From IMG/VR virus record IMGVR_UViG_3300045988_077461: a stretch of DNA of 15,968 bases. One strand, 5' to 3'. This document shows positions 1-15,968 of the stretch, in pieces (the first letter of the stretch is position 1; each line of letters starts with the position of its first letter). Below the pieces are notes generated by a model. The model was not told the origin of the DNA, did not search any database, and worked only from the letters and a program-made list of their open reading frames with translations. Made by a program: the position numbers and the translations under genes. This DNA is from a virus.

Positions 1-66
1 AGAGGGCTTACGTTATTCCCGATGAGACCACGTCCCCCATTTGGTTAAAAAGCACGAAAAAAATAC

Positions 67-95
67 TTGACAAATAATACGGCTCGTGGTATTAT
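67..95 (+). promoter_or_regulatory. Terminal early promoter, sigma-A type (left copy)
   Basis: TTGACA (67-72), a 17-nt spacer ending in TGg (87-89, extended -10), then TATTAT (90-95, overlapping TATAAT at 93-98). It lies about 45 nt upstream of the first gene's GGAGG RBS. Confidence 0.7.
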
Positions 96-143
96 AATTA
101 TAGAAACAAGGAAACCTAGTAAAAATAAGGAGGAAGAAAATAA

Positions 144-599
144 ATGATTAAATACAGACTACATAACATCACAGATTTTGGAATACAACTCCATGACTTC
201 TATACTGAAAATTCACTAAACAATTACATAGCCTTATTTGTAGACCCGCCATATTGGGTTGAAAATTTAGAAACACATGAAAATGTGTATACAGACTTTG
301 ACGGTCATACAGAAACTCATTTATGTAACGAAAATATGGTAGTAGTTACATTAAATAAACTAGACGATTTAAATGTTTCACGTGAAACAGTACACGAATC
401 TGAAATAGACTGGATAAAAAGGCATATACAAGCAGAAGAAAAAGAACCATACACCAAATTAGAAAAAATATCCTCTTTCTTAGCAATCTTATCAGTCATA
501 ATAATGGCAACCTTTTTGCTATATCTTTTCTTATCTTCTGTATCATTTATAGCAGAACATTTTTCAGAGTTCACATGGAAAGTATTTAATATTTTATAA
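144..599 (+). CDS. Hypothetical early protein with a C-terminal transmembrane anchor (151 aa), ITR-L copy
   Basis: AAGGAGG RBS at about 128-134. The hydrophobic stretch SSFLAILSVIIMATFLLYLFLSSVSFI lies near the C-terminus. It is the first gene after the terminal promoter. I recognise no family. Confidence 0.6.
   Translation: MIKYRLHNITDFGIQLHDFYTENSLNNYIALFVDPPYWVENLETHENVYTDFDGHTETHLCNENMVVVTLNKLDDLNVSRETVHESEIDWIKRHIQAEEKEPYTKLEKISSFLAILSVIIMATFLLYLFLSSVSFIAEHFSEFTWKVFNIL
374..389. promoter_or_regulatory. 16-bp palindromic box TGTTTCACGTGAAACA inside the first ITR gene (left copy)
   Basis: Perfect copy of the palindrome that also occurs at 9091-9106, 10405-10420, 10586-10601 and 11665-11680. 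Here it encodes part of N-V-S-R-E-T-V. Confidence 0.6.
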
Positions 600-612
600 G
601 GAGGAAAAAAAC

Positions 613-807
613 ATGGCAAAATTAACAAATAAATTATTGCGCTATAAAGTAATGTTTACGAAAGGTGGCACAGGCGGCTACACCGCCCGCGTCATGATAC
701 CAAAAGAAGCAATTCGAGATTTAGACATTCATCCGGGTGATAGTATCGAATACACGCGCGTACCACATGGCTTGCTATTAAGAAAAGTGGAAAAGGATGT
801 GGATTAA
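613..807 (+). CDS. AbrB/SpoVT-like small DNA-binding protein (64 aa), ITR-L copy; putative transcriptional regulator
   Basis: RBS AAGGAGGA at 598-605. The segment ARVMIPKEAIRDLDIHPGDSIEY...GLLLRKV fits the SpoVT-AbrB swapped-hairpin pattern (xIPKexrexLgixpGdxvex...g.iil.k). It sits immediately upstream of the putative terminal protein, the position of regulator gene 4 in phi29. Confidence 0.55.
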   Translation: MAKLTNKLLRYKVMFTKGGTGGYTARVMIPKEAIRDLDIHPGDSIEYTRVPHGLLLRKVEKDVD

Positions 808-810
808 AAG

Positions 811-1521
811 ATGGCTAATAAACGTATAAAAAAGAAAAAAACAAAAGCTTTTCTTATACAGAAAGAATATTCTAAAGAATATAATAAATATTTATCTCGT
901 GTCAGAAATCAACAAAAACAAGGGGTACAGGTAAAGGCAATCAAGCGAGTAAAAAACCCTACGCAATCTTCTATTAATAGAATTAAAAAACAGAATGCAA
1001 AAGAAATACGAAAAAATGCGTCGGTTGTTGATATGCTTACAGGTGAGGTTATAAGCTCTAAAGAGTATGGACGTAAACATACACTTGAAAGAAACAGAGT
1101 TTTTATAAAACTGACACCACAGGAACAAGAATATGCTAGAATGCAAGGTTATACTGATATTAAGGAATTAAAAGCACTACAAAAGAACGGTATTAAAGTC
1201 AATATAGCAATACCTGTATTAGATTACGAAGCAATTATTGATTCGTGGTATGATTCTTTAGAGAGTTTTGTGCCAAAAACAACTGATTATTTAAGGCAAA
1301 AAACAGACGCTATATTATCTAATGCGTCGGAGAAAGAAAGGGCGTTATTTGCTTACACATACACAAAAGAAAGCGAAGCATTTCCAACAGAGCCATACAT
1401 GGACAAAGCTACGGTTGACGCTGTATTTTGGAACATTTTGCATAGAATGGGCGTTATTAGCACAACAGAAGATTTTCAAGAATTTTTGCAAGAGCAAGAT
1501 ATTGTTATTGAGAACGAATAA
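811..1521 (+). CDS. Putative terminal (DNA-priming) protein (236 aa), ITR-L copy
   Basis: In the right arm the identical gene sits directly upstream of the protein-primed DNA polymerase, matching the gene 3 to gene 2 order in phi29. The N-terminus is very basic (MANKRIKKKKTK...) and the C-terminus acidic. The size is close to known terminal proteins (230-266 aa). I see no clear sequence similarity to phi29 gp3. Confidence 0.45.
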   Translation: MANKRIKKKKTKAFLIQKEYSKEYNKYLSRVRNQQKQGVQVKAIKRVKNPTQSSINRIKKQNAKEIRKNASVVDMLTGEVISSKEYGRKHTLERNRVFIKLTPQEQEYARMQGYTDIKELKALQKNGIKVNIAIPVLDYEAIIDSWYDSLESFVPKTTDYLRQKTDAILSNASEKERALFAYTYTKESEAFPTEPYMDKATVDAVFWNILHRMGVISTTEDFQEFLQEQDIVIENE

Positions 1522-1537
1522 AAAGAGGTGAGAATAA

Positions 1538-1558
1538 ATGCCACGAAAAAATACTTGA
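1538..1558 (+). pseudogene. Six-codon stub of the DNA polymerase 5' end at the inner edge of ITR-L
   Basis: ATG CCA CGA AAA AAT ACT TGA. The RBS, ATG and the next 5 nt are identical to the real polymerase start (MPRK...), and the sequence then leaves the ITR and terminates. Confidence 0.8.
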
Positions 1559-1559
1559 C

Positions 1560-1591
1560 AAAATTAAGCCCCGCCTGTGATGGAGGGGCTC
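1560..1591 (-). terminator. Rho-independent terminator closing the late operon; possibly bidirectional, also stopping ITR-L transcription
   Basis: Stem 1567-1575 (AGCCCCGCC) pairs with 1582-1590 (GGAGGGGCT): 9 bp with one mismatch and a 6-nt loop. On the minus strand it is followed by TAATTTTGT, on the plus strand by CTTTCATATTCTTC. It lies 25 nt downstream of the tail-fibre stop codon. Confidence 0.7.
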
Positions 1592-1615
1592 TTTCATATT
1601 CTTCTACACCAATTT

Positions 1616-2317
1616 CTATCTAGGAATTCCATAAACACCGATAACCGCTGTCGGGTTATTGCCTGGGTGCGTACTTGTATACGCGTGTTGCATAGCGCTT
1701 GAATTAATAGTGATATGCGTATCATCAACAACTGTAATTTTAATTGTGGTAGTAGTGATAGCGCCATCTCCATAAACTCCTTGCTGACAAGCGTCATAAT
1801 TCTGCTTGTCTGTTCTATATGCGAAAATCGGCCCTACTCCCTCAGCTGTCTCAATATATAAAAATCTATAATTTGTCAAACTGTCATTCAATGTAATAGT
1901 TGAATTTTTAATTGAACCCGTCCACAGTGTTGTATCCCTGTTCACGCGGTCAGCTTTTGCGCTTGCATTATTAGCGGTCAAAAGTGCGTTGTCTGCTGTG
2001 TTCTGTGCGCCAGTAGCATTTTGACTTGCGGTTGTTGCTGTGTCCTGTGCAGTTTTCACTTTCTCTTTCAGTCCTCCGACATCTGTCTGCAAGTCTGTAA
2101 TAGCAGTGGTATGCGCTTTTACAGTTTTTTCTACTTCGTCAACTCTAGCAATTGCGCTTCCTGCGTTCTGAGTGGCTGTGGTAGCCTTATCATCTGTGCT
2201 ATGAATAGCTGTATCGATTTTAGTCATATCAGAGTTATAATCTCCTAGATAAGTTGGCTTGTCAGTGCCAATATACTGACTTAAATTGTAATAAGTTGTT
2301 TTATTTGTTGAACTCAT
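1616..2317 (-). CDS. Tail fibre / receptor-binding protein (233 aa)
   Basis: RBS AAGGAGGAC. The N-terminal motif YYNLSQYIGTDKPTYLGDYNSDMTKID resembles the conserved N-terminus of many Bacillota phage fibre proteins. An Ala/Thr/Gln-rich coiled shaft follows, with two TAxQNAxxA repeats, then a globular C-terminal domain. It is the last late gene. Confidence 0.65.
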   Translation of the reverse strand: MSSTNKTTYYNLSQYIGTDKPTYLGDYNSDMTKIDTAIHSTDDKATTATQNAGSAIARVDEVEKTVKAHTTAITDLQTDVGGLKEKVKTAQDTATTASQNATGAQNTADNALLTANNASAKADRVNRDTTLWTGSIKNSTITLNDSLTNYRFLYIETAEGVGPIFAYRTDKQNYDACQQGVYGDGAITTTTIKITVVDDTHITINSSAMQHAYTSTHPGNNPTAVIGVYGIPR

Positions 2318-2338
2318 AATTTTTTGTCCTCCTTTAAT

Positions 2339-3178
2339 TTATAATTTTAACGCTGTTTTGGCGTTACTGTCAAATGTATAAGCACTTAGTGCTTTTGCTT
2401 CAAAAGCTGTGACAGTCAGTAATAATGCATCAAACTCTCTCGCTGTGATAGGGTTGTCAAAGTGTAACTCTGCAAGCTGATTGATAACATCTTGATAAAA
2501 TACATACTCCCCAGTAAACGGACTATGCATATATAAGTTGCTATCTACTCTGAATTTTTTTGCCCCGTATAAGTCAAACTCTGTACAATTAATTGATAAA
2601 CCATCAAACTCCGTACAAGTTAAATTCAACGAGTCAAATTCATTACAAGTCAAAGCATAATAACGTAGATTATCATACATATCTGCTAACGCTTGGTTCA
2701 AGCTTGTTCTATAACCTCTTACAGGGTTCAACACTTCCATATTATTTGGTACATAGTCATTGATATAATCATAGAGTTTTTTCACCTCTGTATCAATATG
2801 CGCTCTTGTCTCAGCGTTCAAGTCATATACCAAAATATTCAATGTACTAATTTTATCAAGTAATTGAGTTTGAACTCTATTGATTTTTTCATCAAGTTCC
2901 GTGTCTTTAGCGTTCATATCTTCACGGATATTTTTATCCACCTCTGTAATATGGTTATAGATATCAGTGTTAAGTCCATCGACATATGCTTTTAACTCTG
3001 CCACTTTTTCATCAGTGTACTGTTGATATGCATTTGTAAAACTGTTGATTGCGTCAATGCACTCATTTACTTTATAGCCGATATAACATAAACATTCATA
3101 ATAACTCTGTTTATTGCTATACACGCTTGGAACATCACAGCAAAGTAAAGGAAATAAAGGTTTTATATCTCCTGCCAT
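2339..3178 (-). CDS. Coiled-coil structural protein with (L/I)TxxEFD decapeptide repeats (279 aa); probable tail appendage or fibre component
   Basis: The ORF track starts at a GTG (3187) that abuts the RBS. The ATG at 3178 sits 6 nt after AAGGAGGTG and is the likelier start. The central segment is heptad-like. The C-terminal half carries six 10-aa repeats: ALTCNEFDSL, NLTCTEFDGL, SINCTEFDLY, then PITAREFDAL, LLTVTAFEAK, ALSAYTFDSN. Confidence 0.5.
   Translation of the reverse strand: MAGDIKPLFPLLCCDVPSVYSNKQSYYECLCYIGYKVNECIDAINSFTNAYQQYTDEKVAELKAYVDGLNTDIYNHITEVDKNIREDMNAKDTELDEKINRVQTQLLDKISTLNILVYDLNAETRAHIDTEVKKLYDYINDYVPNNMEVLNPVRGYRTSLNQALADMYDNLRYYALTCNEFDSLNLTCTEFDGLSINCTEFDLYGAKKFRVDSNLYMHSPFTGEYVFYQDVINQLAELHFDNPITAREFDALLLTVTAFEAKALSAYTFDSNAKTALKL
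2573..2656. repeat. Three diverged 30-bp tandem repeats inside the 279-aa gene
   Basis: Units GTCAAACTCTGTACAATTAATTGATAAACC (2573-2602), ATCAAACTCCGTACAAGTTAAATTCAACGA (2603-2632) and GTCAAATTCATTACAAGTCAAAGC (2633-2656). They encode the first cluster of xTCxEFDxL decapeptides. Confidence 0.75.
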
Positions 3179-3193
3179 ATATCTCACCTCCTT

Positions 3194-3940
3194 TCACCAA
3201 ACTTTTAGAAACAAATCTCGACAAGCTTCTACAAGTTCTCGATTGATATTCTGTATTTGCTCGCGATATTCTTCAATTGCTTCACTTGTTGATTTTCCTC
3301 TTAATCCTATCTCTTTCGTGTCTCTGTCTCTTTTGCTGTCTTTGTTGTCGTTACCTGTATGGTTATTGTTTGCGGTTGTTGTAGTGTTATTGACAGTCTC
3401 GCCCCTATTCATAGAGCTTGCATAGTCTTGCGTGGCTACGGTAACTTGCGGGTTGTCGCTGTCAATATTTTGATAGTTTTGGTTGTTTTTTACCTCGCTG
3501 TTTCCTGTATCTGTTGCTTTAGTCGTTGTTTTTTCGTTTCCTTTTTCTGCTTCTGTGATTGTTATATTTACATTTGTAAAAGGGTTGTCATTTTGAATTG
3601 CGTTATACAATTTTGTATAATACGGTGTCAATTCATGCATTTTTGCCATGAATGCAGTTTTCCACATACCCAATGTTTCAAAACCTATATAATTATTCCA
3701 GTATCTAAGTAAAAAATATGTTTTAAAAGTATACATATCTTTTCTATATTCTGAGTAAAAAGGAAAATCAAAGTCAAAAAATTTATCCTGTGTTTTATCA
3801 ATAATTATTTGCACAGATAAGTCCATGCTCCATAGTTCTTGGGGTATAATAAAGCTTTCACAAATTTCTTTAACAGTTGTTGTATATTTACTCAATTTCG
3901 TCACCCTCTTTCCCTTTTTGCATGTACTTGTCAGGTACAT
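3194..3940 (-). CDS. Putative lower collar protein (phi29 gp11 position), 233-248 aa
   Basis: Immediately downstream of the portal gene, as gp11 is in phi29. The start is uncertain. The ATG at 3940 overlaps the portal gene by 53 nt and has a weak RBS. A TTG at 3895 follows GAGGGTG (3901-3907) and overlaps the portal stop codon (ATTGAGTAA), which suggests translational coupling. The protein contains an Asn/Thr-rich low-complexity segment (NNTTTTANNNHTGNDNKDSKRDRD). Confidence 0.5.
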   Translation of the reverse strand: MYLTSTCKKGKRVTKLSKYTTTVKEICESFIIPQELWSMDLSVQIIIDKTQDKFFDFDFPFYSEYRKDMYTFKTYFLLRYWNNYIGFETLGMWKTAFMAKMHELTPYYTKLYNAIQNDNPFTNVNITITEAEKGNEKTTTKATDTGNSEVKNNQNYQNIDSDNPQVTVATQDYASSMNRGETVNNTTTTANNNHTGNDNKDSKRDRDTKEIGLRGKSTSEAIEEYREQIQNINRELVEACRDLFLKVW

Positions 3941-4787
3941 ATCCGTTCATCATGGTAGGCAACTCACTGTTGAAGTCAACGGTTACATTGAGACCCCATA
4001 ATTCATTTATAGTATCCGCACATCTTCTACGTAATGTCAGTCCAACGTTTCTATTTGCTTCAATCTGACCATTGTTACCAGCTGTCTCGCCAGTAACAAG
4101 GCGCTCACTTTTCTCTACAGGGTTGCTTTCATAGCCTAAAGATGTTAATACCTGTGACCATAAATCTCTTAATTCCTGCTCACATTTATCCACGATATAA
4201 GGTGCTCCCATGTTCAGTGCTTTGATGTCTTTCAAGTTCAATGAATCGGAAAGTTTTATAATGGGTAAATAGTTGTCGTACTCTTCACCTACTATTTCAA
4301 AGCTTAATTTTTCATTGTCAGAGGAAGAAAGTACAACAGGTGTACGTTGTGCATACATATTAATACCTTTTGTTTTCCAAGTGTTCGCCATAGCATCTGC
4401 ATACATTAAAGCTTTATAGTAATACGGCATACTTGAGTAGTTATTCCATAAGATACAACTATTTTCTTTACCATATTCTTCAATATATCCGTTAGGCGTG
4501 TAAGCGATTCTATCTTTAGGAATATTATAAATATCGGGTAAGCCGGATAATGAAACTTTCATGAATGCATATCCTGCAATTTTATCCTTGATGAATACGC
4601 CCAAACCATTCCAAAAAAGAGTTTGCTCAATATACATAGGTAAAATTTCTTCCGGTAGATTATTCCATGTATATCTATTTACAAATATATCGAAAATATC
4701 ATAAAAGAATATAGATTTAATTGTTTCAAAATCACTACATTTATTTTTGTTGATATTTCTCTCAAAAACCCTTAACGGATTCCTCAT
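3888..4787 (-). CDS. Portal / upper collar connector protein, phi29 gp10-like (299 aa)
   Basis: Blocks match phi29 gp10 as I recall it. [30 protein letters not shown] aligns with [48 protein letters not shown] aligns with [26 protein letters not shown]...[10 protein letters not shown]...[13 protein letters not shown] aligns with DAPYVVDK...EKKERMVTDE...INELYGLNVKVKF. RBS GGGAGG. Confidence 0.88.
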   Translation of the reverse strand: [299 protein letters not shown]

Positions 4788-4802
4788 TTATATCCACCTC
4801 CC

Positions 4803-6419
4803 TTATTCGTTGGATAAACTATAATTCCCGATGTCATCAGTATGCCACAAAGTCACTCCGTTATCAAATATATTTCTTAATTTTTTTAATTGGTCTAAGT
4901 CGATATTACCAGTAAAACCGCAATGTGATGTTTTTACATAATTCCAGTATGACCGAGAATGTAAGTATGGGGTTGTTATTTTATTAATAGGATAACCGAA
5001 CTGTTCAAAAAAACTATCAGCCATTTCTGCAAATTGTCTTTTGCATGACATTTCGTAGAAATCAACGCCACACTCTTTGATACCTGTCAGAACATTTTCT
5101 GATAACGCTTTACCATGCGTCACACCAGCGTTTCTCGCTCTGTCTGTCTGATTGGCTAACATACCAAGCGCGTCCCAAAAAGCATTTGTTGTTTTACCAA
5201 GTCCGTTAATACCTCCCTGTAAACTACCACCTGCCAATCCTGCTATAGCTGAACCTGTTCCTATGGTAGCATCAACAGCGGTATGAACTTGCGATAGAGC
5301 AATAGAGCTTTTGTTCTGTGCTAACCATGCTCGATAAGTGTCAGAAGAAAAGGAACACATCGGAAAAGAAGAGTTAATGAGTGCTTCGCTCATTAGTCCA
5401 TGTCCTAACACTTCACGAGTCTTATAATTTTTCGGTGCTGTCAAGACTTGCGGTAACGTTGCTATTGTTCCATAGCTATCGAACTCAAGGGACTTATCTC
5501 GGTTATAGCTATACTCATATCTATAGATATGAGTGTTGCCTTGATTATTGTCAGCCAAACAAAATAACCAAGGGTAAGAGTATAACTTTTTATTTTTCGG
5601 TTTGTACCCCTCGAAAACGTTGTCAGAAATTTGCATACTTGTTATTTTCGGTTTAATTTCTTTTCCACCTAAAGCAAGTGTGCATAATTTAGGCGACATA
5701 AATAACCCTATGACTGCATCTTGCGCGCCTTGGTTATTATAGTCTTCCAATAATGTGTTAATTCCTTTTAGTCCATCTTCTGTAGTAACATCATAATGCC
5801 CTATACTACCCCAGCAATAGACCCCATTTTCCACACGACCCTCAAACCAGCTTTGTTCAGATGTTCCTCGTGTTACAAAAGCGCAACACTCCGTTGGTGT
5901 CAAGTCCAATTTTTTGTGCCGTGATACGATTGTTTCGCCTGTTTCGATGTTTACAGGGGTTAGATTTACCCCTATTCCGTCATCACTTCTTGGAATATGA
6001 TGATACTCTACAAAGCAAGGTTTTATATTTGCATCGTAAAAGTTATTTTGAAAAACATCTAAAGAAAAATTAATCCTAGTTGTTTTTTCTGATAACCATT
6101 CGATGGAATCAATAAAGCAAAATACCCACTCATTAGATATGCCACTATTCTGAAAAGCTAAATAATTTAGATTAAGTGCTTTCATTTCTGTGAATGGTAC
6201 GCGGATATCATAATTTCCTACTTTAATTGGTGCAAGGTGTGACAAGTCAACTCCACTGATATGTTTTCGGTAAGTCTCTAAATGATTTAATAAGTTCTCT
6301 TTTGAGTTGTACAGTCTAACGTGTTCATATTCATCAGACCATGGCACTCCACTGTATAATCTCAATTTTGTTTCGGGGTTGCGTGGCGCAACCCCTCCTT
6401 GAGATGGTAAATTTATCAT
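4803..6419 (-). CDS. Tail knob / distal tail tube protein (phi29 gp9 position), 538 aa
   Basis: A large ORF between the capsid and portal genes, exactly where gp9 (599 aa) lies in phi29. RBS AGAGG. The assignment is by synteny and size only. Confidence 0.55.
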   Translation of the reverse strand: MINLPSQGGVAPRNPETKLRLYSGVPWSDEYEHVRLYNSKENLLNHLETYRKHISGVDLSHLAPIKVGNYDIRVPFTEMKALNLNYLAFQNSGISNEWVFCFIDSIEWLSEKTTRINFSLDVFQNNFYDANIKPCFVEYHHIPRSDDGIGVNLTPVNIETGETIVSRHKKLDLTPTECCAFVTRGTSEQSWFEGRVENGVYCWGSIGHYDVTTEDGLKGINTLLEDYNNQGAQDAVIGLFMSPKLCTLALGGKEIKPKITSMQISDNVFEGYKPKNKKLYSYPWLFCLADNNQGNTHIYRYEYSYNRDKSLEFDSYGTIATLPQVLTAPKNYKTREVLGHGLMSEALINSSFPMCSFSSDTYRAWLAQNKSSIALSQVHTAVDATIGTGSAIAGLAGGSLQGGINGLGKTTNAFWDALGMLANQTDRARNAGVTHGKALSENVLTGIKECGVDFYEMSCKRQFAEMADSFFEQFGYPINKITTPYLHSRSYWNYVKTSHCGFTGNIDLDQLKKLRNIFDNGVTLWHTDDIGNYSLSNE

Positions 6420-6441
6420 ATATAAATACCTCTATTAATTA

Positions 6442-7710: not shown

Positions 7711-7726
7711 TTATAATAGCACCCCC

Positions 7727-8008: not shown

Positions 8009-8055
8009 ATAATAGTTTACCTCCTTATATTTAGTGTCACCCTTTTACAGTTTTC

Positions 8056-8084
8056 ATTATATCACCACGGCATAAAAAAGTAAA
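8056..8084 (-). promoter_or_regulatory. Candidate internal promoter for the morphogenesis genes
   Basis: On the minus strand: TTTACT (8079-8084), 17 nt, TGa, then TATAAT (8056-8061). It overlaps the last codons of the upstream lysin gene and lies about 45 nt before the scaffold ATG. Confidence 0.4.
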
Positions 8085-9069: not shown

Positions 9070-9086
9070 TTTTACAGACCTCCTTA

Positions 9087-9124
9087 AAAATGTTTCACGT
9101 GAAACATTTTTGTTCCACGTGAAT
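9087..9124. promoter_or_regulatory. Palindromic box pair between the endolysin and tail-lysin genes
   Basis: A perfect 24-bp palindrome AAAATGTTTCACGTGAAACATTTT (9087-9110) is followed by a degenerate copy TGTTCCACGTGAAT (9111-9124). The CACGTG centres are 20 bp apart. On the minus strand the perfect box ends one nt before the AAGGAGG RBS of the 335-aa gene. Confidence 0.6.
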
Positions 9125-9129
9125 AAAAA

Positions 9130-10119: not shown

Positions 10120-10121
10120 GT

Positions 10122-10346
10122 TTAACCCTCTCTTTTCTGTTCAAATGTATCGCATATTCTTTGAAGTGCAAGCGTGTTGTTGTTCAAAGCTTCTGTGATA
10201 TCTTCCATTTCTTTTTTGTGTGCTTCATTTAGATTGTCTACGCGTACGTCGTTTTTATCATCTCTGTATTTAACATACCACATTGACGCAACCGCAACAA
10301 CTGTAGGTAGACCCAATGTGTTAATGGCTGTCATTACTTCCTGCAT
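10122..10346 (-). CDS. Holin-like protein, BhlA/UviB-type architecture (74 aa)
   Basis: A single N-terminal TM helix (LGLPTVVAVASMWYV) is followed by a charged coiled-coil tail. The gene lies immediately upstream of the endolysin, with stop and start 2 nt apart. RBS AAGGAGGTG. Confidence 0.6.
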   Translation of the reverse strand: MQEVMTAINTLGLPTVVAVASMWYVKYRDDKNDVRVDNLNEAHKKEMEDITEALNNNTLALQRICDTFEQKREG

Positions 10347-10367
10347 ATTATCACCTCCTTTTTATAT

Positions 10368-10396
10368 ATCATAGCACAAATAAAACTGCTTGTAAA
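10368..10396 (-). promoter_or_regulatory. Candidate late (lysis and morphogenesis) promoter
   Basis: On the minus strand: TTTACA (10391-10396), 17 nt ending in TGc, then TATGAT (10368-10373), about 20 nt before the holin RBS. Two palindromic boxes lie just upstream, centred near -50 and -66. Confidence 0.55.
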
Positions 10397-10551
10397 TAAA
10401 AAATGTTTCACGTGAAACATTATCCACGTGAAACATATTGTACGTTACAAAATAATCGAATCAAAGGGAACGCAACGCCAAAAATTGATATCAGACTACT
10501 TGTCTATGTGCGCGTATATCAATTACAATGCTCGTATTATTTTGGGTACAT
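10397..10551 (-). ncRNA. Candidate non-coding RNA (~150 nt); possible packaging RNA (pRNA)
   Basis: This is the only long ORF-free gap in the unique region (10375-10600). A consensus promoter fires into it. Positions 10532-10550 can pair with 10439-10459: a 12-bp helix with one bulged A, plus a 5-bp extension. That helix encloses about 72 nt containing a 9-bp hairpin (10483-10491 with 10516-10524). The 3' end would be the palindrome at 10402-10421 followed by TTTTTATTT. It is adjacent to the packaging ATPase gene. Confidence 0.45.
10402..10436. promoter_or_regulatory. Palindromic box pair upstream of the late promoter; it may also act as the hairpin terminator of the candidate ncRNA
   Basis: A perfect 20-bp palindrome AATGTTTCACGTGAAACATT (10402-10421) plus a half-degenerate copy CCACGTGAAACAT (10424-10436). 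The CACGTG centres are 16 bp apart. Confidence 0.6.
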
Positions 10552-10555
10552 TGTA

Positions 10556-10584
10556 ATTATAGCATGCATAATTTAAAATGTCAA
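10556..10584 (-). promoter_or_regulatory. Consensus sigma-A promoter driving the ORF-free region
   Basis: On the minus strand: TTGACA (10579-10584), an exact 17-nt spacer ending in TGc, then TATAAT (10556-10561). The -35 overlaps the end of the palindromic box 10583-10602 by 2 nt. Confidence 0.7.
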
Positions 10585-10602
10585 TGTTTCACGTGAAACA
10601 TT
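10583..10602. promoter_or_regulatory. Palindromic box overlapping the ATPase stop codon and the -35 of the ncRNA promoter
   Basis: AATGTTTCACGTGAAACATT, a perfect 20-bp palindrome. Confidence 0.6.
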
Positions 10603-11647
10603 AAAAAGATATGACATCAAATATCATATTCTTACATTCTAAATTTTCAAATAAAAGTAAACCTCTATTAAAATATTCTCGTAGCATCGTTACAATATAA
10701 TGAGTTGAATTTACACGGATAGCTGTGTTATCGATAACGTCAGTTTTTGTAAAGCATATCCTTACTGGAAAACTGTCGTCAGCACCAGTTGATATATACA
10801 TATAAGTATCGTATCTTCTCACGTTATACATTTTTTCATTAAATCTAATTGTACAAATATATCGCGATTGGCCACTAGGTTTACCTATTAAGCAATCATT
10901 GTCATTCAAATATTTATTTTCACTAGCGTATTCATTATAACTTGCACCTTGAAATGCCCTAGCTATACCACTTTCTTTATATGCTGTTGAAGCATTTTCA
11001 TTATAAGTTCGTTCAAATACCCAACCGTCACCGCGTAAAAATTTAGTGTTATGTTTTAACATTTTATTTATACCAAAAACGTTATAATAAGGGTTCAATA
11101 ATGACACGGTATTAGAAGCCATATACAGCATAACTCTTCTATGCTGCTTCCCATGACCTGCGCTAATAGTTGTGAGCAATGATAAAAGCTTATTTACTTC
11201 GTTTGGCAAATATACGTTATCTTCGTCTTGATATTCGTCAAAAAATACAGAACGAATATTTACAAATAATCCACGCATTTTTTTATATTTTCTTGCGACA
11301 GATAAAGATAAACAATATCCGCATGGTTCTTCATTCAGATATAATTGTATCAATGACCCATTCATCAAACTCTTTTCAGTCATTACATAACCATCAAATT
11401 TTTCAGATATATCTCCAAAATACGTGTCAGCACAGTTTTTCATATCAATAACATTTCGATATAAATATATAAATTGATTTTCGGGTCTATATTTATCTTT
11501 TAAAAAATCAGAAACTTGTCTACACTTAATGGAATAGCTTTTGCCTGCCGTTCTATTACCATCTACAATATAAATATCCGGGATTTTGCCGTTTTTATCT
11601 TTCAATGTTAATAATCTATCGCAATGATAATAACCATCATTTTCCAT
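10601..11647 (-). CDS. DNA encapsidation (packaging) ATPase, phi29 gp16-like (348 aa)
   Basis: Walker A is IVDGNRTAGKSYSIK (phi29 FVIGARGIGKSYAMK), followed by NQFIYLYRN (EQFIYVRRY). Walker B and downstream read VFFDEYQDEDNVYLPNEVNKLLSLL...MASNTVSLLNPYY (phi29 IVFDEFIREKDNSNYIPNEVSALLNLM...LSNAVSVVNPYF). RBS AAGGAGG. Confidence 0.92.
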   Translation of the reverse strand: MENDGYYHCDRLLTLKDKNGKIPDIYIVDGNRTAGKSYSIKCRQVSDFLKDKYRPENQFIYLYRNVIDMKNCADTYFGDISEKFDGYVMTEKSLMNGSLIQLYLNEEPCGYCLSLSVARKYKKMRGLFVNIRSVFFDEYQDEDNVYLPNEVNKLLSLLTTISAGHGKQHRRVMLYMASNTVSLLNPYYNVFGINKMLKHNTKFLRGDGWVFERTYNENASTAYKESGIARAFQGASYNEYASENKYLNDNDCLIGKPSGQSRYICTIRFNEKMYNVRRYDTYMYISTGADDSFPVRICFTKTDVIDNTAIRVNSTHYIVTMLREYFNRGLLLFENLECKNMIFDVISF

Positions 11648-11663
11648 TTTTAAAACCTCCTTA

Positions 11664-11681
11664 ATGTTTCACGTGAAACAT
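11664..11681. promoter_or_regulatory. Palindromic box between the early terminator and the ATPase RBS
   Basis: ATGTTTCACGTGAAACAT, a perfect 18-bp palindrome. On the minus strand it ends two nt before the AAGGAGG RBS of the ATPase gene. Confidence 0.6.
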
Positions 11682-11690
11682 GTATTTTTT

Positions 11691-11720
11691 AAAAAAAAGG
11701 AGTGGCGTATAGCCACCCCC
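11691..11720 (-). terminator. Rho-independent terminator ending the early (replication) operon
   Basis: On the minus strand GGGGTGGC-TATAC-GCCACTCC forms an 8-bp stem with one mismatch and is followed by a run of 8 T (11691-11698). It lies 44 nt downstream of the SSB-like gene. Confidence 0.75.
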
Positions 11721-11763
11721 TTTAGAAGAAGAGAACATAAAATGGTATTCTCACGGCATCATG

Positions 11764-12114
11764 TTATAAATTTGATACGTCTAAGGTGCAATTGATATAA
11801 TCGCGTCCTGCTTTTGTCTTTCCACTAATTTTAATGATAGAAAATTTTTCGCCCTCCATCACATTTTCAATGTCTTTCAAAGACTGTCTAAAAGTTGCAG
11901 ACTGTCCGGAATATACTTTCTTCTCCGGTGTAATAATGCTTAGAATTTCCTGTATGTCTCCATTATCTTTGATATCATTAAAAATGATATAGCCATCAAC
12001 TGGGATTGATTCTCCGTCATCGATATTTTTTAATGGCTCAATGTCTGGTGCTGTAGTCATAAGATATTTTTCCACCTTTGTGAACTCTCTACTCATTTCT
12101 TTAATTTCTATCAT
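11764..12114 (-). CDS. Putative single-stranded DNA-binding protein, phi29 p5-like (116 aa)
   Basis: The C-terminal half EILSIITPEKKVYSGQSATFRQSLKDIENVMEGEKFSIIKISGKTKAGRDYINCTLDV parallels phi29 p5 as I recall it ([31 protein letters not shown]...FKVKVVQGTSSKGNVFFSLQLSL). The size matches and the gene sits in the early operon. RBS AGGAGG. Confidence 0.45.
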   Translation of the reverse strand: MIEIKEMSREFTKVEKYLMTTAPDIEPLKNIDDGESIPVDGYIIFNDIKDNGDIQEILSIITPEKKVYSGQSATFRQSLKDIENVMEGEKFSIIKISGKTKAGRDYINCTLDVSNL

Positions 12115-12138
12115 AATAATTTCCTCCTATTTTTCCTG

Positions 12139-12438
12139 CTAATCTTCCTTTTTCATTTCCTGCAATTCTGCTTCAGTAACAATTTTTTCGCTCTTGACAT
12201 CTGAATTGAGTAAGAACTGTTCATCAGTCATGACACGTTTTTCCAGTTTAAATTTGATGTCTAAAATTGAAACAATGTCACCTTTATACTGCTTTTCAAT
12301 CAAGATTTCCGCTTTTTCTCTTGTCTTACAATTTGCGAGTTTATCGTCAAAGCAATCTTTCTTGATTTCACCTGTCTCCTTGTCTTTGTAGATTCTTTCC
12401 ACAGATACTTCTGCCGTTACTAATGTCCTTGTAAACAT
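12139..12438 (-). CDS. Putative dsDNA-binding, histone-like replication protein, phi29 p6-like (99 aa)
   Basis: The real start is probably the internal ATG at 12438, preceded by AAAAGGAGGAAAAAAG. The upstream 30 codons of the tracked ORF read through promoter and RBS sequence. The pattern RTLVTAEVSV...GEI...TREKAEILIEKQYKGDIVSILDI...MTDEQFL with an acidic tail resembles phi29 p6 (REITKTTVNV...GEV...TMEQAQWRMKRKYKGEPVQVVSV...LPVEKFL, acidic tail). This rests on memory only. Confidence 0.4.
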   Translation of the reverse strand: MFTRTLVTAEVSVERIYKDKETGEIKKDCFDDKLANCKTREKAEILIEKQYKGDIVSILDIKFKLEKRVMTDEQFLLNSDVKSEKIVTEAELQEMKKED

Positions 12439-12482
12439 CTTTTTTCCTCCTTTTTTCTGCTTTTTTTTGTTGGTGTGAATTG

Positions 12483-12511
12483 TAATGTAATATGTTTTAT
12501 TTATTACATTA
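12483..12511. promoter_or_regulatory. Inverted repeat over the predicted transcription start of the internal early promoter
   Basis: A 10-bp stem: 12483-12492 (TAATGTAATA) pairs with 12502-12511 (TATTACATTA), with a 9-nt loop. It lies 3 nt downstream of the -10, so it could be an operator or a 5' mRNA hairpin. It is AT-rich, so chance is not excluded. Confidence 0.3.
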
Positions 12512-12513
12512 TT

Positions 12514-12542
12514 ATAATAGCACAACAACTAAATATAGTCAA
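12514..12542 (-). promoter_or_regulatory. Internal early promoter for the p6-like and SSB-like genes
   Basis: On the minus strand: ATACTTGACT (-35 at 12537-12542), 17 nt ending in TGc, then TATTATAAT (-10 at 12514-12519). The architecture and flanks nearly match the terminal promoter (ATACTTGACA...TGgTATTATAAT). It starts 9 nt after the polymerase stop codon. Confidence 0.6.
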
Positions 12543-12550
12543 GTATTATA

Positions 12551-14431
12551 TTATAATTTTTTATCTTTTTGTTCGTGTATATTGAAGTCTTTATTTCTTA
12601 ATACAATACCGCCTTTTACTCGCTCTGCTTTTAAGTTACAAGTGTTCATACTAAGACCAGTGGATAACTCAGATATGTCTCGTCCATCTTCGATAAATTT
12701 TCTTTTAGCTTGACTACTCATTCCACAGGCTTTTATATCAAGATAAGGCTCGCATGGTATATGATTCTCTTCAATAATATGCTCTGCATAAGTTTTCTGT
12801 CTTTCATAATACGCAAAATCAAATGTACTTTCGCATTTCCAACAACAAAAATTAGTAGAATGCTCCACAACCTTTTCTGCTTTTTCTGTACCTATAATAT
12901 GTATCGAGTCCGTATCAGCGTAACAAAATCGGTCATAATTTGCCATAGCATGACGTATAGTAAAATTCATAGCATAAGAAGTAATAGCACTACCAATTGG
13001 AATATACCCGACTTTCTTTTCATGTTCCTCATGTAGTGTAAATCTTATAATACCATCATCATCAAGATAAGGCTCTTTGTAAGATGAGTTATCCGACATA
13101 GCAAATTTTCCATAGAGGTTATTTAAAAATAGTTTCGCTTTTTGTCTTTTAAAACCTTTTGATGTTCTTTTTTCTTCTCCGTATTTGTCTATATATTCAT
13201 CAAAAAATCCTTGTCTAGCATAGAACCATATGTAATCATAAATTACCAAATCATAAATATCATAAGTTTCTTGGAACAACGCCCAGTCAGTGCAAGTCAT
13301 AGTTAGAGTGACATTAGTATCATGCATTTGTCCGTCAATATCACGGTAATATCGATAATATTCGCCTTTATACCGTACATTAGAAGTATATAAATTTTCA
13401 TTTGATTTGTATAAAGCACTATTCCTAATATGTAACCATGGAAATGCCCCTGCTTTTAACTGAAATCTACAATTGAAACGAATAAAAAAATATTTATTAG
13501 TAGACCTTATCAATTCATCGGGTGGAGACCCTCTGTGATATTCTCCATGACCGAACGGGTATTTATTCCCACTAATGCTATGCATCATAGACGGGTACAA
13601 AGAGTTTACATCATATACTAATCCCTCCCCCACTACCATATGCGCGTAACGTGGATTGACGTAGCACCAGCCTCCGTGATATGATTTGTGAATATAGTCC
13701 CACTGATTCCATACACCTGTGATAGATTCGTCTATATAATCTTCTCTAATATCGGGAAATAACTTATCATATTGTTTAGCATCATAAAAACCTTTAAATT
13801 CTGATAGACAGCATGAACCTATTGTTAGTTTATCATGATTTTCATTGAACATCATTTCAAGTGCTTCTTTTAATACTAATACATCATTTTCAATATACTT
13901 TTTCTCATTTTCAGATATATCACAATAAGCGTATCTCTCGCCCTCATATTCCATGTCTAGCTTTTGGTGCTTTGTGCCAAATGATTTTCCGATATTTTTT
14001 AATGAAGAGGGCATAAGCTTTAAAGAGTTTCGGATTTCTAAAAAAGTCTTGTTCCATTTTAATTTAATCCAATACCAGGAACCCATATCAGATATACAAG
14101 TTTGAAATTCTTTTGATTTCATTTCTTTATCTTTACAATGTACCCATTCCCAACCCTCTTTTAATAGAAAATCTACTATAAAAGAACCGTCAAATGCAAG
14201 ATTATGAAAGTATAATATATTGTTACCTCTCATTGTCAAAAATCTATTTAAAAAATCTCTTATCGAATGAGTTATTGTTACTGTTTCGGTTTCGTCATAT
14301 AAGGCCACGTAAGCTCCACTCCACACTTCTGTACTATCTTGCTTTTTACCTTTTTCTTGCTCCACCTTTTCACCCCATACGGTAGTCTCAAAATCGCACG
14401 CCCAAAAAGTAATACTCTTTTTACGTGGCAT
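12551..14431 (-). CDS. Protein-primed family-B DNA polymerase, phi29 gp2-like (626 aa)
   Basis: All hallmark motifs can be read. ExoI is FWACDFETT. ExoII is YFHNLAFDGSFIV. ExoIII is YIENDVLVLKEAL. Motif A is VYDVNSLYPSMM. Motif B is KAKLFLNNLYGKFA. Motif C is CYADTDSIHI. The KxY motif is ERQKTYAEH. The RBS and start codon lie inside ITR-R. Confidence 0.96.
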   Translation of the reverse strand: MPRKKSITFWACDFETTVWGEKVEQEKGKKQDSTEVWSGAYVALYDETETVTITHSIRDFLNRFLTMRGNNILYFHNLAFDGSFIVDFLLKEGWEWVHCKDKEMKSKEFQTCISDMGSWYWIKLKWNKTFLEIRNSLKLMPSSLKNIGKSFGTKHQKLDMEYEGERYAYCDISENEKKYIENDVLVLKEALEMMFNENHDKLTIGSCCLSEFKGFYDAKQYDKLFPDIREDYIDESITGVWNQWDYIHKSYHGGWCYVNPRYAHMVVGEGLVYDVNSLYPSMMHSISGNKYPFGHGEYHRGSPPDELIRSTNKYFFIRFNCRFQLKAGAFPWLHIRNSALYKSNENLYTSNVRYKGEYYRYYRDIDGQMHDTNVTLTMTCTDWALFQETYDIYDLVIYDYIWFYARQGFFDEYIDKYGEEKRTSKGFKRQKAKLFLNNLYGKFAMSDNSSYKEPYLDDDGIIRFTLHEEHEKKVGYIPIGSAITSYAMNFTIRHAMANYDRFCYADTDSIHIIGTEKAEKVVEHSTNFCCWKCESTFDFAYYERQKTYAEHIIEENHIPCEPYLDIKACGMSSQAKRKFIEDGRDISELSTGLSMNTCNLKAERVKGGIVLRNKDFNIHEQKDKKL

Positions 14432-14447
14432 TTATTCTCACCTCTTT

Positions 14448-15158
14448 TTATTCGTTCTCAATAACAATATCTTGCTCTTGCAAAAATTCTTGAAAATCTT
14501 CTGTTGTGCTAATAACGCCCATTCTATGCAAAATGTTCCAAAATACAGCGTCAACCGTAGCTTTGTCCATGTATGGCTCTGTTGGAAATGCTTCGCTTTC
14601 TTTTGTGTATGTGTAAGCAAATAACGCCCTTTCTTTCTCCGACGCATTAGATAATATAGCGTCTGTTTTTTGCCTTAAATAATCAGTTGTTTTTGGCACA
14701 AAACTCTCTAAAGAATCATACCACGAATCAATAATTGCTTCGTAATCTAATACAGGTATTGCTATATTGACTTTAATACCGTTCTTTTGTAGTGCTTTTA
14801 ATTCCTTAATATCAGTATAACCTTGCATTCTAGCATATTCTTGTTCCTGTGGTGTCAGTTTTATAAAAACTCTGTTTCTTTCAAGTGTATGTTTACGTCC
14901 ATACTCTTTAGAGCTTATAACCTCACCTGTAAGCATATCAACAACCGACGCATTTTTTCGTATTTCTTTTGCATTCTGTTTTTTAATTCTATTAATAGAA
15001 GATTGCGTAGGGTTTTTTACTCGCTTGATTGCCTTTACCTGTACCCCTTGTTTTTGTTGATTTCTGACACGAGATAAATATTTATTATATTCTTTAGAAT
15101 ATTCTTTCTGTATAAGAAAAGCTTTTGTTTTTTTCTTTTTTATACGTTTATTAGCCAT
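14448..15158 (-). CDS. Putative terminal (DNA-priming) protein (236 aa), ITR-R copy, directly upstream of the polymerase
   Basis: Identical to 811..1521. Its stop codon lies 16 nt before the polymerase ATG, in the same operon. Confidence 0.45.
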   Translation of the reverse strand: MANKRIKKKKTKAFLIQKEYSKEYNKYLSRVRNQQKQGVQVKAIKRVKNPTQSSINRIKKQNAKEIRKNASVVDMLTGEVISSKEYGRKHTLERNRVFIKLTPQEQEYARMQGYTDIKELKALQKNGIKVNIAIPVLDYEAIIDSWYDSLESFVPKTTDYLRQKTDAILSNASEKERALFAYTYTKESEAFPTEPYMDKATVDAVFWNILHRMGVISTTEDFQEFLQEQDIVIENE

Positions 15159-15161
15159 CTT

Positions 15162-15356
15162 TTAATCCACATCCTTTTCCACTTTTCTTAATAGCAAGCC
15201 ATGTGGTACGCGCGTGTATTCGATACTATCACCCGGATGAATGTCTAAATCTCGAATTGCTTCTTTTGGTATCATGACGCGGGCGGTGTAGCCGCCTGTG
15301 CCACCTTTCGTAAACATTACTTTATAGCGCAATAATTTATTTGTTAATTTTGCCAT
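15162..15356 (-). CDS. AbrB/SpoVT-like small DNA-binding protein (64 aa), ITR-R copy
   Basis: Identical to 613..807. Confidence 0.55.
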   Translation of the reverse strand: MAKLTNKLLRYKVMFTKGGTGGYTARVMIPKEAIRDLDIHPGDSIEYTRVPHGLLLRKVEKDVD

Positions 15357-15369
15357 GTTTTTTTCCTCC

Positions 15370-15825
15370 TTATAAAATATTAAATACTTTCCATGTGAAC
15401 TCTGAAAAATGTTCTGCTATAAATGATACAGAAGATAAGAAAAGATATAGCAAAAAGGTTGCCATTATTATGACTGATAAGATTGCTAAGAAAGAGGATA
15501 TTTTTTCTAATTTGGTGTATGGTTCTTTTTCTTCTGCTTGTATATGCCTTTTTATCCAGTCTATTTCAGATTCGTGTACTGTTTCACGTGAAACATTTAA
15601 ATCGTCTAGTTTATTTAATGTAACTACTACCATATTTTCGTTACATAAATGAGTTTCTGTATGACCGTCAAAGTCTGTATACACATTTTCATGTGTTTCT
15701 AAATTTTCAACCCAATATGGCGGGTCTACAAATAAGGCTATGTAATTGTTTAGTGAATTTTCAGTATAGAAGTCATGGAGTTGTATTCCAAAATCTGTGA
15801 TGTTATGTAGTCTGTATTTAATCAT
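15370..15825 (-). CDS. Hypothetical tail-anchored membrane early protein (151 aa), ITR-R copy
   Basis: Identical to 144..599. Confidence 0.6.
   Translation of the reverse strand: MIKYRLHNITDFGIQLHDFYTENSLNNYIALFVDPPYWVENLETHENVYTDFDGHTETHLCNENMVVVTLNKLDDLNVSRETVHESEIDWIKRHIQAEEKEPYTKLEKISSFLAILSVIIMATFLLYLFLSSVSFIAEHFSEFTWKVFNIL
15580..15595. promoter_or_regulatory. 16-bp palindromic box inside the first ITR gene (right copy)
   Basis: Mirror of 374..389: TGTTTCACGTGAAACA. Confidence 0.6.
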
Positions 15826-15873
15826 TTATTTTCTTCCTCCTTATTTTTACTAGGTTTCCTTGTTTCTATAATT

Positions 15874-15902
15874 ATAATACCACGAGCCGTATTATTTGTC
15901 AA
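15874..15902 (-). promoter_or_regulatory. Terminal early promoter, sigma-A type (right copy), heading the operon that runs into the DNA polymerase gene
   Basis: Mirror image of 67..95: -35 at 15897-15902 and -10 at 15874-15879 on the minus strand. Confidence 0.7.
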
Positions 15903-15968
15903 GTATTTTTTTCGTGCTTTTTAACCAAATGGGGGACGTGGTCTCATCGGGAATAACGTAAGCCCTCT

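Follow-up and report, generated by a model that had tools for sequence, protein, structure and literature searches.

We consider it likely that the window, a stretch of viral DNA of 15,968 nucleotides that was analysed at its full length, is the complete linear genome of an uncultured human-gut phi29-like podophage, and that its long inverted terminal repeat (ITR) is the product of a replacement of one genome end by a copy of the opposite end, as has happened repeatedly in its clade. By base-by-base comparison, positions 1-1545 and 15968-14424 form a perfect inverted repeat of exactly 1545 nt, a length that rules out a chance origin; a repeat search extends it to 1551 nt if one mismatch is allowed. 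An earlier note on this DNA had described the same repeat and had counted only 12,878 bp of unique sequence, and both figures hold: the unique region (1546-14423, minus strand) is equal, with zero mismatches, to an independent ENA scaffold (L091) of exactly this segment. The right arm (ITR-R, 14424-15968, minus strand) would be the original early end, comprising the terminus, a promoter, three early genes and the first 8 nt of the DNA polymerase gene polB. The left arm (ITR-L, 1-1545, plus strand), its perfect reverse complement, would be the derived copy, now located at the late-gene end.

Both ends of the window read AGAG-GGCTT, a reiterated terminal sequence at the ends of a linear genome with ITRs. 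The terminus, AGAG-GGCTTACGTTATTCCC, occupies positions 1-20 (plus strand) and is mirrored at 15949-15968, where the window closes with AGAGGGCTTACG..., the terminus common to its relatives. Among relatives, 24 contig ends stop exactly at AGAG followed by GGCTT, and an Illumina adapter directly abuts the terminus in two relatives (L016 and L072). Because the relatives' contigs stop at the same terminus and adapters abut there, we conclude that the window reaches the true molecular ends. Identical inverted copies with intact genes extend to both of these physical termini, as in arm replacement. By analogy with phi29-type biology, the terminus is presumed to act as the replication origin, and the genome presumably replicates by protein priming from both ends.

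The gene content of the unique region was assigned by Pfam and PHROGs matches. The region comprises polB, two small ORFs, a gp16 ATPase, a non-coding RNA, a holin-like protein and a GH25 lysin, together with a tail lysozyme, a scaffold protein, the capsid protein, tail knob, connector, lower collar and two tail proteins. The polymerase (12551-14431, minus strand) is a protein-primed family B enzyme (PF03175 DNA_pol_B_2, E = 1e-50). The morphogenesis set of capsid protein, connector gp10, tail knob gp9, lower collar and gp16 packaging ATPase was found through matches to PF25622 (E = 2.6e-78), PF05352 (1.9e-49), PF20934 (2.2e-30), PF05894 (1e-32) and phrog_5472 (1.9e-24). A protein-primed polymerase and phi29-type morphogenesis proteins are features of the phi29-like podophages (Salasmaviridae-like, the former Picovirinae), and gene set, termini and independent junction contigs (see below) all agree with the claim of the earlier note that this is a complete phi29-like genome with gene-bearing ITRs of 1.5 kb. 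Judged by sequence, the phage does not appear to be closely akin to any classified isolate of the existing ICTV phi29-like genera or families; the whole window yielded no megablast match among 50,697 GenBank phage records, and its capsid protein shares at most 30% identity with that of any cultured phage. Beside the ATPase gene lies a promoter-driven structured RNA of ~110 nt with covariation support (11 compensatory pairs versus 2.4 in shuffles), and an Rfam scan for a pRNA gave nothing meaningful. The host is probably a member of the Clostridia; a scan of GTDB genomes returned only a phage contig (L092) in an 'uncultured Clostridia' MAG and a weak, irrelevant match.

Each ITR arm contains an early promoter (67-95, plus strand; mirrored at 15874-15902, minus strand) with the near-consensus sequence TTGACA-17-TATTAT (11 of 12 matches, extended TG). 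It is present in both arms, in line with the strong promoter described previously, and is conserved in relatives. Downstream, each arm carries three intact ORFs of 151, 64 and 236 amino acids. The first (144-599, plus strand; second copy 15370-15825, minus strand) encodes a protein whose C-terminal part contains a transmembrane segment (residues 112-130, where the 19-residue Kyte-Doolittle profile peaks at 2.7) and which has no family match in Pfam or PHROGs. The second (613-807, plus strand; 15162-15356, minus strand) encodes a SpoVT/AbrB-fold DNA-binding protein (PF04014, E = 7e-7, 29.5 bits with a cut-off of 24.7 bits). The third (811-1521, plus strand; 14448-15158, minus strand) is located immediately upstream of polB and encodes our candidate terminal protein. 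The translation start of the polymerase lies in ITR-R, as the earlier note had stated, with the ORF beginning 8 nt inside this arm, and the same 8 nt of the left copy open a stub of six codons (1538-1558, plus strand; ATG CCA CG|A AAA AAT ACT TGA, MPRKNT*). Promoter, membrane protein, AbrB-like regulator and terminal protein candidate thus occur in two copies, and transcription is expected to run inward from either end, so that the second gene copy may be expressed as well.

The earlier identification of the three ITR genes stands with respect to the intact ORFs, the membrane protein and the AbrB-like protein, whereas the name 'terminal protein' is taken solely from gene order, namely from the position upstream of polB. 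The candidate has 23 Lys/Arg among its first 70 residues, and its AlphaFold2 model is all-helical (pLDDT 92.9). In the cultured Clostridium phage CS229P1, the ORF that precedes polB is a homologue of the candidate (HHalign 99.2%) and the only one among the syntenic ORFs compared by HHalign that matched. The syntenic ORF of Hungatella phage CH17P1 was negative, and a comparison with the annotated asccphi28 terminal protein found no support. Searches of Pfam, of PHROGs and, with the single sequence as well as a profile, of PDB sequences returned no known terminal protein, and Foldseek searches with the AlphaFold2 model returned none from the PDB or BFVD.

The junctions at 1545/1546 and 14423/14424, to which the earlier note had pointed, are found in independent assemblies of bulk metagenome reads, and both are recovered from the same runs. 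Five contigs (L081-L083, L086 and L088) from several MetaHIT gut runs and three assemblers cross the inner junction of ITR-L, where the repeat meets the tail genes. The MEGAHIT k127 contigs with this repeat-to-tail junction (runs ERR321299, ERR321301 and ERR209294) contain exactly 127 nt of the repeat and end at window position 1419, and the SPAdes contig L086 and the Logan contig L088 cross the junction wholly. The junction between the repeat and polB is crossed by L084, L085, L087, L090 and L101-L103; the repeat portion at the start of L102 is exactly 127 nt long, and 1545 is the exact end of the Logan contig L089. Two strain variants (SNP 2177 A>C) share the same junction, with ATGCCACGAAAAAATACTTGAC as the junction-spanning sequence. 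The supporting runs may derive from only one or two MetaHIT individuals, and neither IMG/VR nor the scanned collection of metagenome contigs contained a match to the exact junction.

These contigs bear on the possibility of an assembly or scaffolding artefact, in which the true late-end ITR would be short and the assembler would have put the 1.5-kb early segment on both ends. Arms are identical by construction in short-read assemblies, and contigs of this clade do show artefacts, among them a permuted contig (L094), a chimeric one (L095) and adapter remnants. However, the joining k-mers exist, the repeat-to-tail junction comes from different runs and assemblers rather than from one contig, and on either side the MEGAHIT contigs break off after exactly k = 127 nt of the repeat, the pattern that a genuine repeat boundary leaves in an assembly graph. 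We regard such an artefact as highly improbable and conclude that the repeat is real. Two specific kinds of artefact were considered and rejected: a de Bruijn mis-join, as the junction shares only 4-9 nt, far less than any k used, and a fold-back or hairpin artefact, which would give adjacent palindromes, whereas the duplicated segment comes from the opposite genome end.

The origin of the repeat can be read from a junction scar (1542-1562, plus strand), which the earlier note had overlooked. Here, the left junction reads ...ATGCCACG, with a CACG microhomology at 1542-1545 followed by 17 nt (1546-1562) that match ITR positions 58-74. In relatives with ITRs of 62-66 nt, the late end reads ...GCACGAAAAAATA, with the terminator directly after. 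In the window, the corresponding element is a hairpin (1566-1591, minus strand) with a GCCCC-N12-GGGGC stem followed by UUAAUUUUGU on the minus strand, and the stem is present in the minimum-free-energy fold of both strands. This hairpin probably terminates the late (tail) operon. By sequence comparison, the 17-nt scar is the inner remnant of an older ITR of ~74 bp beside this terminator. Because the scar retains the interior of the old ITR, its outer 57 nt appear to have been replaced by the early-end copy. As in arm replacement, the junction in the window is illegitimate, shows microhomology and keeps part of the replaced end, and the relatives L056 and L075 carry analogous scars. No close relative was found that keeps a short late end together with the same tail gene and terminator (best segment matches at most 79% identical), so that the scar and more distant relatives served to reconstruct the ancestor.

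In this reconstruction, the ancestor would have resembled most of the relatives. Its early end would have carried the terminus, the strong promoter, the membrane protein, the AbrB-like protein, the terminal protein candidate, polB and the remaining genes on one strand. Its late end would have consisted of the ~74-bp ITR alone, directly followed by the late-operon terminator; the short end would read ...TTGTCAAGTATTTTTTCGTGCTTTTTAACC. A single illegitimate event would then have exchanged the outer 57 nt of the late-end ITR for the first 1545 nt of the early end, copied in inverted orientation and joined at the CACG shared by polB codons 2-3 and ITR positions 53-56. Two routes could lead to this product. 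A nascent strand primed at the early end may have switched template to the 3' end of the displaced strand, or a nibbled 3' end of the displaced strand may have annealed inside its own 5' region and been extended to the end, in a panhandle-type repair. The resulting genome would replicate normally, because the copy restores a perfect origin. Transcripts from ITR-L would run into the late-operon terminator, which may stop them.

The exact identity of the two arms had previously been taken to imply either recency or homogenisation. It carries little information, because short-read assemblers collapse both arms: de Bruijn assemblers build them from one collapsed edge, and only ~127 nt beside each junction are resolved separately. 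This weakens the proposal of a real but old long ITR whose arms stay identical because panhandle or gene-conversion repair continues to homogenise them. Displaced single strands of protein-primed replication could form panhandles, and the contig arms are indeed identical, but the scar of the old ITR is intact, which points to a recent event, and the junction of the window occurs in no other relative among ~120 loci. Homogenisation also appears to be weak in the clade, given that the arms of the relatives' short ITRs share 88-100% identity, that the long ITR of L118 contains a mismatch and that L036 carries a 59-nt deletion. We therefore judge an old, homogenised repeat to be quite unlikely.

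A real but non-heritable junction was also considered, that is, a replication by-product or defective genome generated by template switching, in cells or during library preparation, beside a phage with short ITRs. Phi29-type polymerases switch templates, and bulk metagenomes include intracellular replicating DNA. Moreover, the short parental end would form a 57-nt dead-end tip that assemblers prune, so that its absence from contigs proves nothing, and the phage may occur in a mixture with a short-ITR parent. Against this stands the recovery of one exact junction in several runs and in both SNP variants, while random switching at 4 nt of homology should yield many different junctions. The junction edge survives the low-coverage pruning of the assemblers, and low-depth runs recover either branch alone (L088 versus L085), which suggests a similar depth of the two. 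To our knowledge, the MetaHIT libraries were made without whole-genome amplification. Finally, the diverged or decayed long ITRs in L118 and L036 must be inherited structures. A by-product is thus quite improbable, and we favor the heritable replacement of the late end by a copy of the early end.

The long gene-bearing ITR is not unique to the window. ITRs measure 62-178 bp in relatives with canonical termini, but several others carry gene-bearing ITRs of independent origin. In L056, the ITR measures 1203 bp; its join lies at a 9-nt microhomology (TTACGTTAT), and positions 17-66 of the old ITR are kept. In L075, the join is at GAAAAAATAC, and the old promoter and terminator are kept. The ITR of L118/L034 spans at least 1089 nt and ends at a ribosome-binding site. 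In L036, the late-end copy of the membrane protein gene has decayed, the 59-nt deletion causing a frameshift. From their sequences, L056, L118/L034, L036 and L075 represent separate end-replacement events like that of the window. The order of membrane protein, AbrB-like protein and polB is the same in 16/16 complete genomes, the window included; the ORF caller missed the terminal protein candidate in L071. Accessory genes (clusters 20, 21 and 22) vary in location: some genomes have them at the early end, others at the late end, where they face inward. The packaged size in the clade ranges from 14.6 to 16.06 kb and includes the window, which is the third largest of 18 complete genomes, L056 being the second largest.

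A more far-reaching idea, which we hold to be rather doubtful, is that the ITR behaves as a movable boundary, copying the promoter-proximal early module to the other end time and again and decaying afterwards, with long ITRs as a selected, recurrent state. If so, the boundary would represent a built-in system for end repair and gene shuttling that moves early genes between the ends. The extended state would make the replication-start module of membrane anchor, regulator and terminal protein diploid and allow its expression from the end that is first to enter the cell. In that case, long ITRs may, for example, protect the ends from host nucleases instead of being neutral accidents. End replacement as such would explain why early accessory genes sit at either genome end, and ITR growth appears to be limited by a capsid capacity of ~16.06 kb. 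The clade is abundant in the human gut and has ITRs of ~62 bp to 1.5 kb, whose junction scars record end rebuilding and thus provide cases from nature in which a protein-primed replisome repaired an end or switched templates. Because short-read assemblers collapse long ITRs, contigs such as L034, L036, L046, L064, L075 and L091 look incomplete or ITR-less, and completeness tools will misjudge them.

We compared the window to other replicons with terminal repeats. Phi29-type phages are the textbook model of protein-primed replication, and their ITRs are taught to comprise a few to a few hundred non-coding bases, for example 236 bp in Cp-1. With phi29, Nf, GA-1, the Goe4 group and Cp-1, the window shares a linear genome, a terminal reiteration for sliding back, polB, gp16 ATPase, connector, tail knob and capsid protein, but classical phi29-group ITRs are only 6-16 bp long (PMC4974454, PMC6266182) and are non-coding. 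The terminus of the window repeats the dinucleotide AGAG, in contrast to AAA in the classical phi29 group. Lactococcus phage asccphi28 (NC_010363) is likewise a phi29-like podophage with a protein-primed polymerase and unusually long ITRs that carry promoters and terminators. Its annotated ITR of 577 bp, the longest we could verify in a described phi29-like phage, is about one third as long and contains no CDS, its terminal protein is unlike our candidate, and its genes form two divergent blocks rather than lying on one strand. The ITR of the window therefore far exceeds those described, as had been claimed before, and our literature searches found no gene-bearing ITR in phi29-like phages. Clostridium phage CS229P1 (OP172772), a cultured gut phi29-like phage, has the same ORF family directly upstream of polB, a phi29-type structural module, a genome of ~16 kb and a gut Clostridia host. 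Its capsid protein is only ~28% identical, and its record has no annotated ITR. Adenoviruses also have protein-primed linear genomes, in which a damaged or truncated end can be rebuilt from the other end, as in panhandle repair and with embedded ITRs, and ITR length can change, but their ITRs are non-coding and ~100-200 bp long, and regeneration has been seen in engineered mutants rather than as natural gene-bearing ITRs. In the linear chromosomes and plasmids of Streptomyces, which are capped by terminal proteins, arm replacement generates terminal inverted repeats that are long, carry genes, vary in length and have illegitimate junctions; these are cellular replicons with internal origins and end-patching, on a kb-Mb scale and with no capsid limit. 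Although poxviruses are eukaryotic viruses more than 10 times larger, with hairpin ends and another replication mode, their ITRs likewise hold diploid genes, and movements of the ITR boundary shuttle genes between unique and repeated regions (PMC9973261).

We compared the two ends of the genome base by base and found that positions 1-1545 and 15968-14424 form a perfect inverted repeat of 1545 nt, as claimed in the earlier note; a repeat search of the window extends it to 1551 nt if one mismatch is allowed. The promoter and three intact genes that the same note placed in each inverted terminal repeat (ITR) were also found in both arms. These are a near-consensus promoter (TTGACA-17-TATTAT with TG), a 151-amino-acid protein with a strongly hydrophobic C-terminal segment, a 64-amino-acid SpoVT/AbrB-domain protein (PF04014, above the curated cut-off) and a 236-amino-acid basic protein, the candidate terminal protein (TP), encoded directly upstream of polB. 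The repeat includes the polB start codon and five more bases, the left copy of which opens a 6-codon stub. All long ORFs across 1616-15825 lie on the minus strand, and the only plus-strand genes of the window are the three in the left arm, which is thus the right end copied in inverted orientation. Pfam and PHROGs searches recognized a phi29-type gene set comprising protein-primed polB (PF03175, 1e-50), gp16 ATPase, a GH25 lysin and tail lysozyme, scaffold protein, phi29-type capsid protein (2.6e-78), tail knob gp9, connector and lower collar.

Relatives were gathered by their capsid protein, 80 from IMG/VR (87-97% amino-acid identity) and 43 more from metagenome assemblies. The window has AGAG followed by GGCTT(A/T)CGTTATTCCC at both ends, and 24 contig ends of these relatives terminate precisely at this sequence. 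Two contigs (L016 and L072) have an Illumina adapter attached straight to the AGAG. The window therefore reaches its physical termini. Adapter remnants (...GTGTGCTCTTCCGATCT) abut the phage terminus at the ends of four public IMG/VR contigs (L016, L058, L061 and L072); they are contamination, yet useful as proof of a physical end. Termini in the clade read XYXY-GGCTT, where XY is AG in most cases and otherwise AT, AA or GT (the ATAT, AAAA and GTGT variants of AGAG). Whereas phi29 ends in AAA, the ends of this clade repeat a dinucleotide (window 1-4 and 15965-15968; ends of L004-L078), a reiteration which suggests that initiation uses an internal base of the template and that a backward slide or jump of 2 nt follows.

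We found the same phage in MetaHIT bulk gut metagenome assemblies through exact-protein look-ups. Three MEGAHIT k127 contigs (L081, L082 and L083; runs ERR321299, ERR321301 and ERR209294) run from the tail genes across the left junction and end at window position 1419, exactly 127 nt within the repeat, and another (L102) begins exactly 127 nt within the repeat and then runs into polB. A Logan contig (L089) terminates exactly at 1545, and a scaffold of a different assembly (L091) coincides exactly with the unique segment of 12,878 bp. Such breakpoints at the repeat edges are the de Bruijn graph pattern of a true repeat with two exits. The TP-to-tail junction is fully spanned by two contigs, L086 (SPAdes, window 327-1918) and L088 (Logan, 222-1695), and the TP-to-polB junction by four (L084, L085, L087 and L090). 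The only sequence common to both junction contexts is CACG plus an A-run, which is much shorter than any k, and the join must thus exist in the reads. A SNP (2177 A>C) is common to L082 and L083 and absent from L081, so at least two variants carry the junction; the supporting MetaHIT runs may represent few individuals. With assemblies of several runs spanning both inner junctions, the earlier reading of a long, gene-bearing ITR is largely supported.

The left unique region opens with AAAAAATACTTGACAAA right after the repeat, a 17-mer identical to repeat positions 58-74 and directly followed by the late-operon terminator hairpin. Seven relatives with canonical termini have ITRs of only 62-66 nt, and their late-end copy ends at ...GCACGAAAAAATA with the terminator immediately next to it. 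The 17-mer is thus the inner remnant of an older late-end ITR of about 74 bp. In the proposed mechanism, a 1545-nt copy of the early end would have taken the place of the outer 57 nt of this old ITR, with the join at CACG, present in both ATGCCACGT (polB) and AGCACGAAAAAA (ITR). The six A's at the junction correspond to the usual ITR of relatives, and hence no slippage need be assumed. The ancestral genome would have measured about 14,480 bp. A nascent strand primed at the early end may have switched template onto the 3' end of the displaced strand; alternatively, a resected 3' end may have annealed inside its own 5' region and been extended, as in panhandle-type repair. Both routes yield the observed product, and the present data fit either. 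The late end is the only one that can be overwritten without loss of essential genes, which accounts for the same polarity in all cases found. We consider it highly probable that the long ITR is real and was made by microhomology-mediated end replacement. A short-ITR form may be present alongside the long one: its unreplaced late end would read ...TTGTCAAGTATTTTTTCGTGCTTTTTAACCAAATGG, and assemblers would prune a 57-nt ancestral tip of this kind.

The exact identity of the arms had been taken to imply either recency or continuing homogenization. Identity as such is uninformative here: both arms derive from one collapsed graph edge in a short-read assembly, so their interiors are identical by construction, and only about 127 nt beside each junction, over which the arms are identical, are resolved independently. 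Elsewhere in the clade, short ITRs share 88-100% identity between arms and long ones carry a mismatch or a deletion; these imperfect arms give no sign of efficient homogenization. Recent origin is the part of the argument that is favored, by the intact scar. The same junction was found in no other relative when their loci were compared, and together with the scar this suggests a recent event.

Gene-bearing ITRs recur in the clade. One relative (L056, 16,031 bp) has a perfect ITR of 1203 bp, joined where the AbrB-like gene and positions 8-16 of the old ITR share a microhomology of 9 nt (TTACGTTAT); positions 17-66 of the old ITR are kept with mismatches. In L075, the join lies at GAAAAAATAC, and the old promoter and terminator are kept. 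L118 and L034 are a single lineage (99.99% identical) whose ITR spans at least 1089 nt, stops at a ribosome-binding site and differs between the arms by one mismatch near the junction. In L036, the copy of the membrane-protein gene at the late end has lost 59 nt (1-300 versus the 3' end), a frameshifting deletion that takes out the transmembrane segment; this is not what an artefact would produce, and it shows a duplicated copy decaying into a pseudogene. Two further contigs (L046 and L064) start within early genes and bear inverted ends of size k, the pattern that collapsed long ITRs leave. The 18 genomes with both canonical termini fall into ITR classes of about 62-66 bp without a promoter, about 109-178 bp with one (and an inward-facing gene in five: L004, L014, L033, L042 and L059), and more than 1.2 kb. 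Gene maps place three accessory clusters (20, 21 and 22) of small genes just inside the ITR promoter (L004, L033, L042, L059, L019 and others). Depending on the genome, they occupy either the early end or the late end, where they face inward, so terminal modules swap ends, as expected if an ITR expands and one copy is then lost. The complete genomes range from 14,605 to 16,058 bp, with L056 second and the window third in size, which suggests that capsid capacity limits ITR growth.

The 236-amino-acid protein is a candidate TP. It has 942 homologues in a large protein collection, none of them annotated, and known TPs were matched neither in Pfam or PHROGs, nor in sequence and profile searches of the PDB, nor by Foldseek of its confident AlphaFold2 model (pLDDT 92.9) against the PDB; the annotated TP of asccphi28 gave no match. 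BFVD returned uncharacterized podovirus proteins only. In the cultured Clostridium phage CS229P1, the ORF immediately preceding polB encodes a homologue of the 236-amino-acid protein (HHalign 99.2%). The TP assignment is thus based on the conserved gene order, the protein's size and its basic N terminus. In the lineage of L094-L097, polB itself is broken into two ORFs (331 and 251 amino acids) about 135 nt apart. One of these contigs (L094, ENA k119_59774, 15,692 nt) is permuted, its late end joined to the early end through the ITR region (~6285-6730), either an assembly join via the ITR or an end-to-end replicative form. In another (L095, ENA NODE_1842, 28,015 nt), the early half of a relative is fused to bacterial GDSL lipase, TrkH and TrkA genes; either this is an assembly chimera or it hints at the host.

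A perfect sigma-70 promoter (TTGACA-17-TATAAT, 10584-10556, minus strand) lies in the 255-nt gap that follows the gp16-like ATPase gene; it would drive a non-coding transcript of about 145-150 nt (10404-10584, minus strand; core of ~110 nt, about 10440-10549) ending in a hairpin and T-run (10404-10435). The region is about 94% conserved across 89 relatives, folds into a closing helix with internal hairpins, and has compensatory changes at 11 pairs, compared with 2.4 for shuffled and 0-2 for slid controls. It has no Rfam match and is a good candidate for the packaging RNA of the clade. A 16-nt palindrome, TGTTTCACGTGAAACA, occurs in six exact copies in the window versus 0.01 expected by chance (374-389, 9091-9106, 10404-10419, 10585-10600, 11665-11680 and 15580-15595). 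Four are intergenic and touch a promoter -35 box, ribosome-binding sites or terminators, and two lie within the membrane-protein ORF of the ITR. The palindrome may serve a dimeric regulator, possibly the AbrB-like protein, as its operator, or may form a terminator/attenuator hairpin.

We compared the window with GenBank phages and found no megablast match and capsid-protein identities of at most 30%; it thus has no close GenBank phage. Described phi29-like ITRs measure 6-16 bp (PMC4974454, PMC6266182), and long ITRs are not discussed in a 2024 review that covers over 2000 phi29-like sequences (PMC11476376). The longest verified one described is the 577-bp ITR of asccphi28, which contains promoters and terminators without a CDS, whereas that of the window carries three genes. 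A gene-bearing ITR in phi29-like phages was not found in the literature searched. What the present analysis adds is the junction scar, the case against an artefact and the recurrence of gene-bearing ITRs in this gut clade. Clear analogues of the process are the regeneration of adenovirus ITRs, arm replacement in Streptomyces linear replicons and the movement of ITR boundaries in poxviruses.
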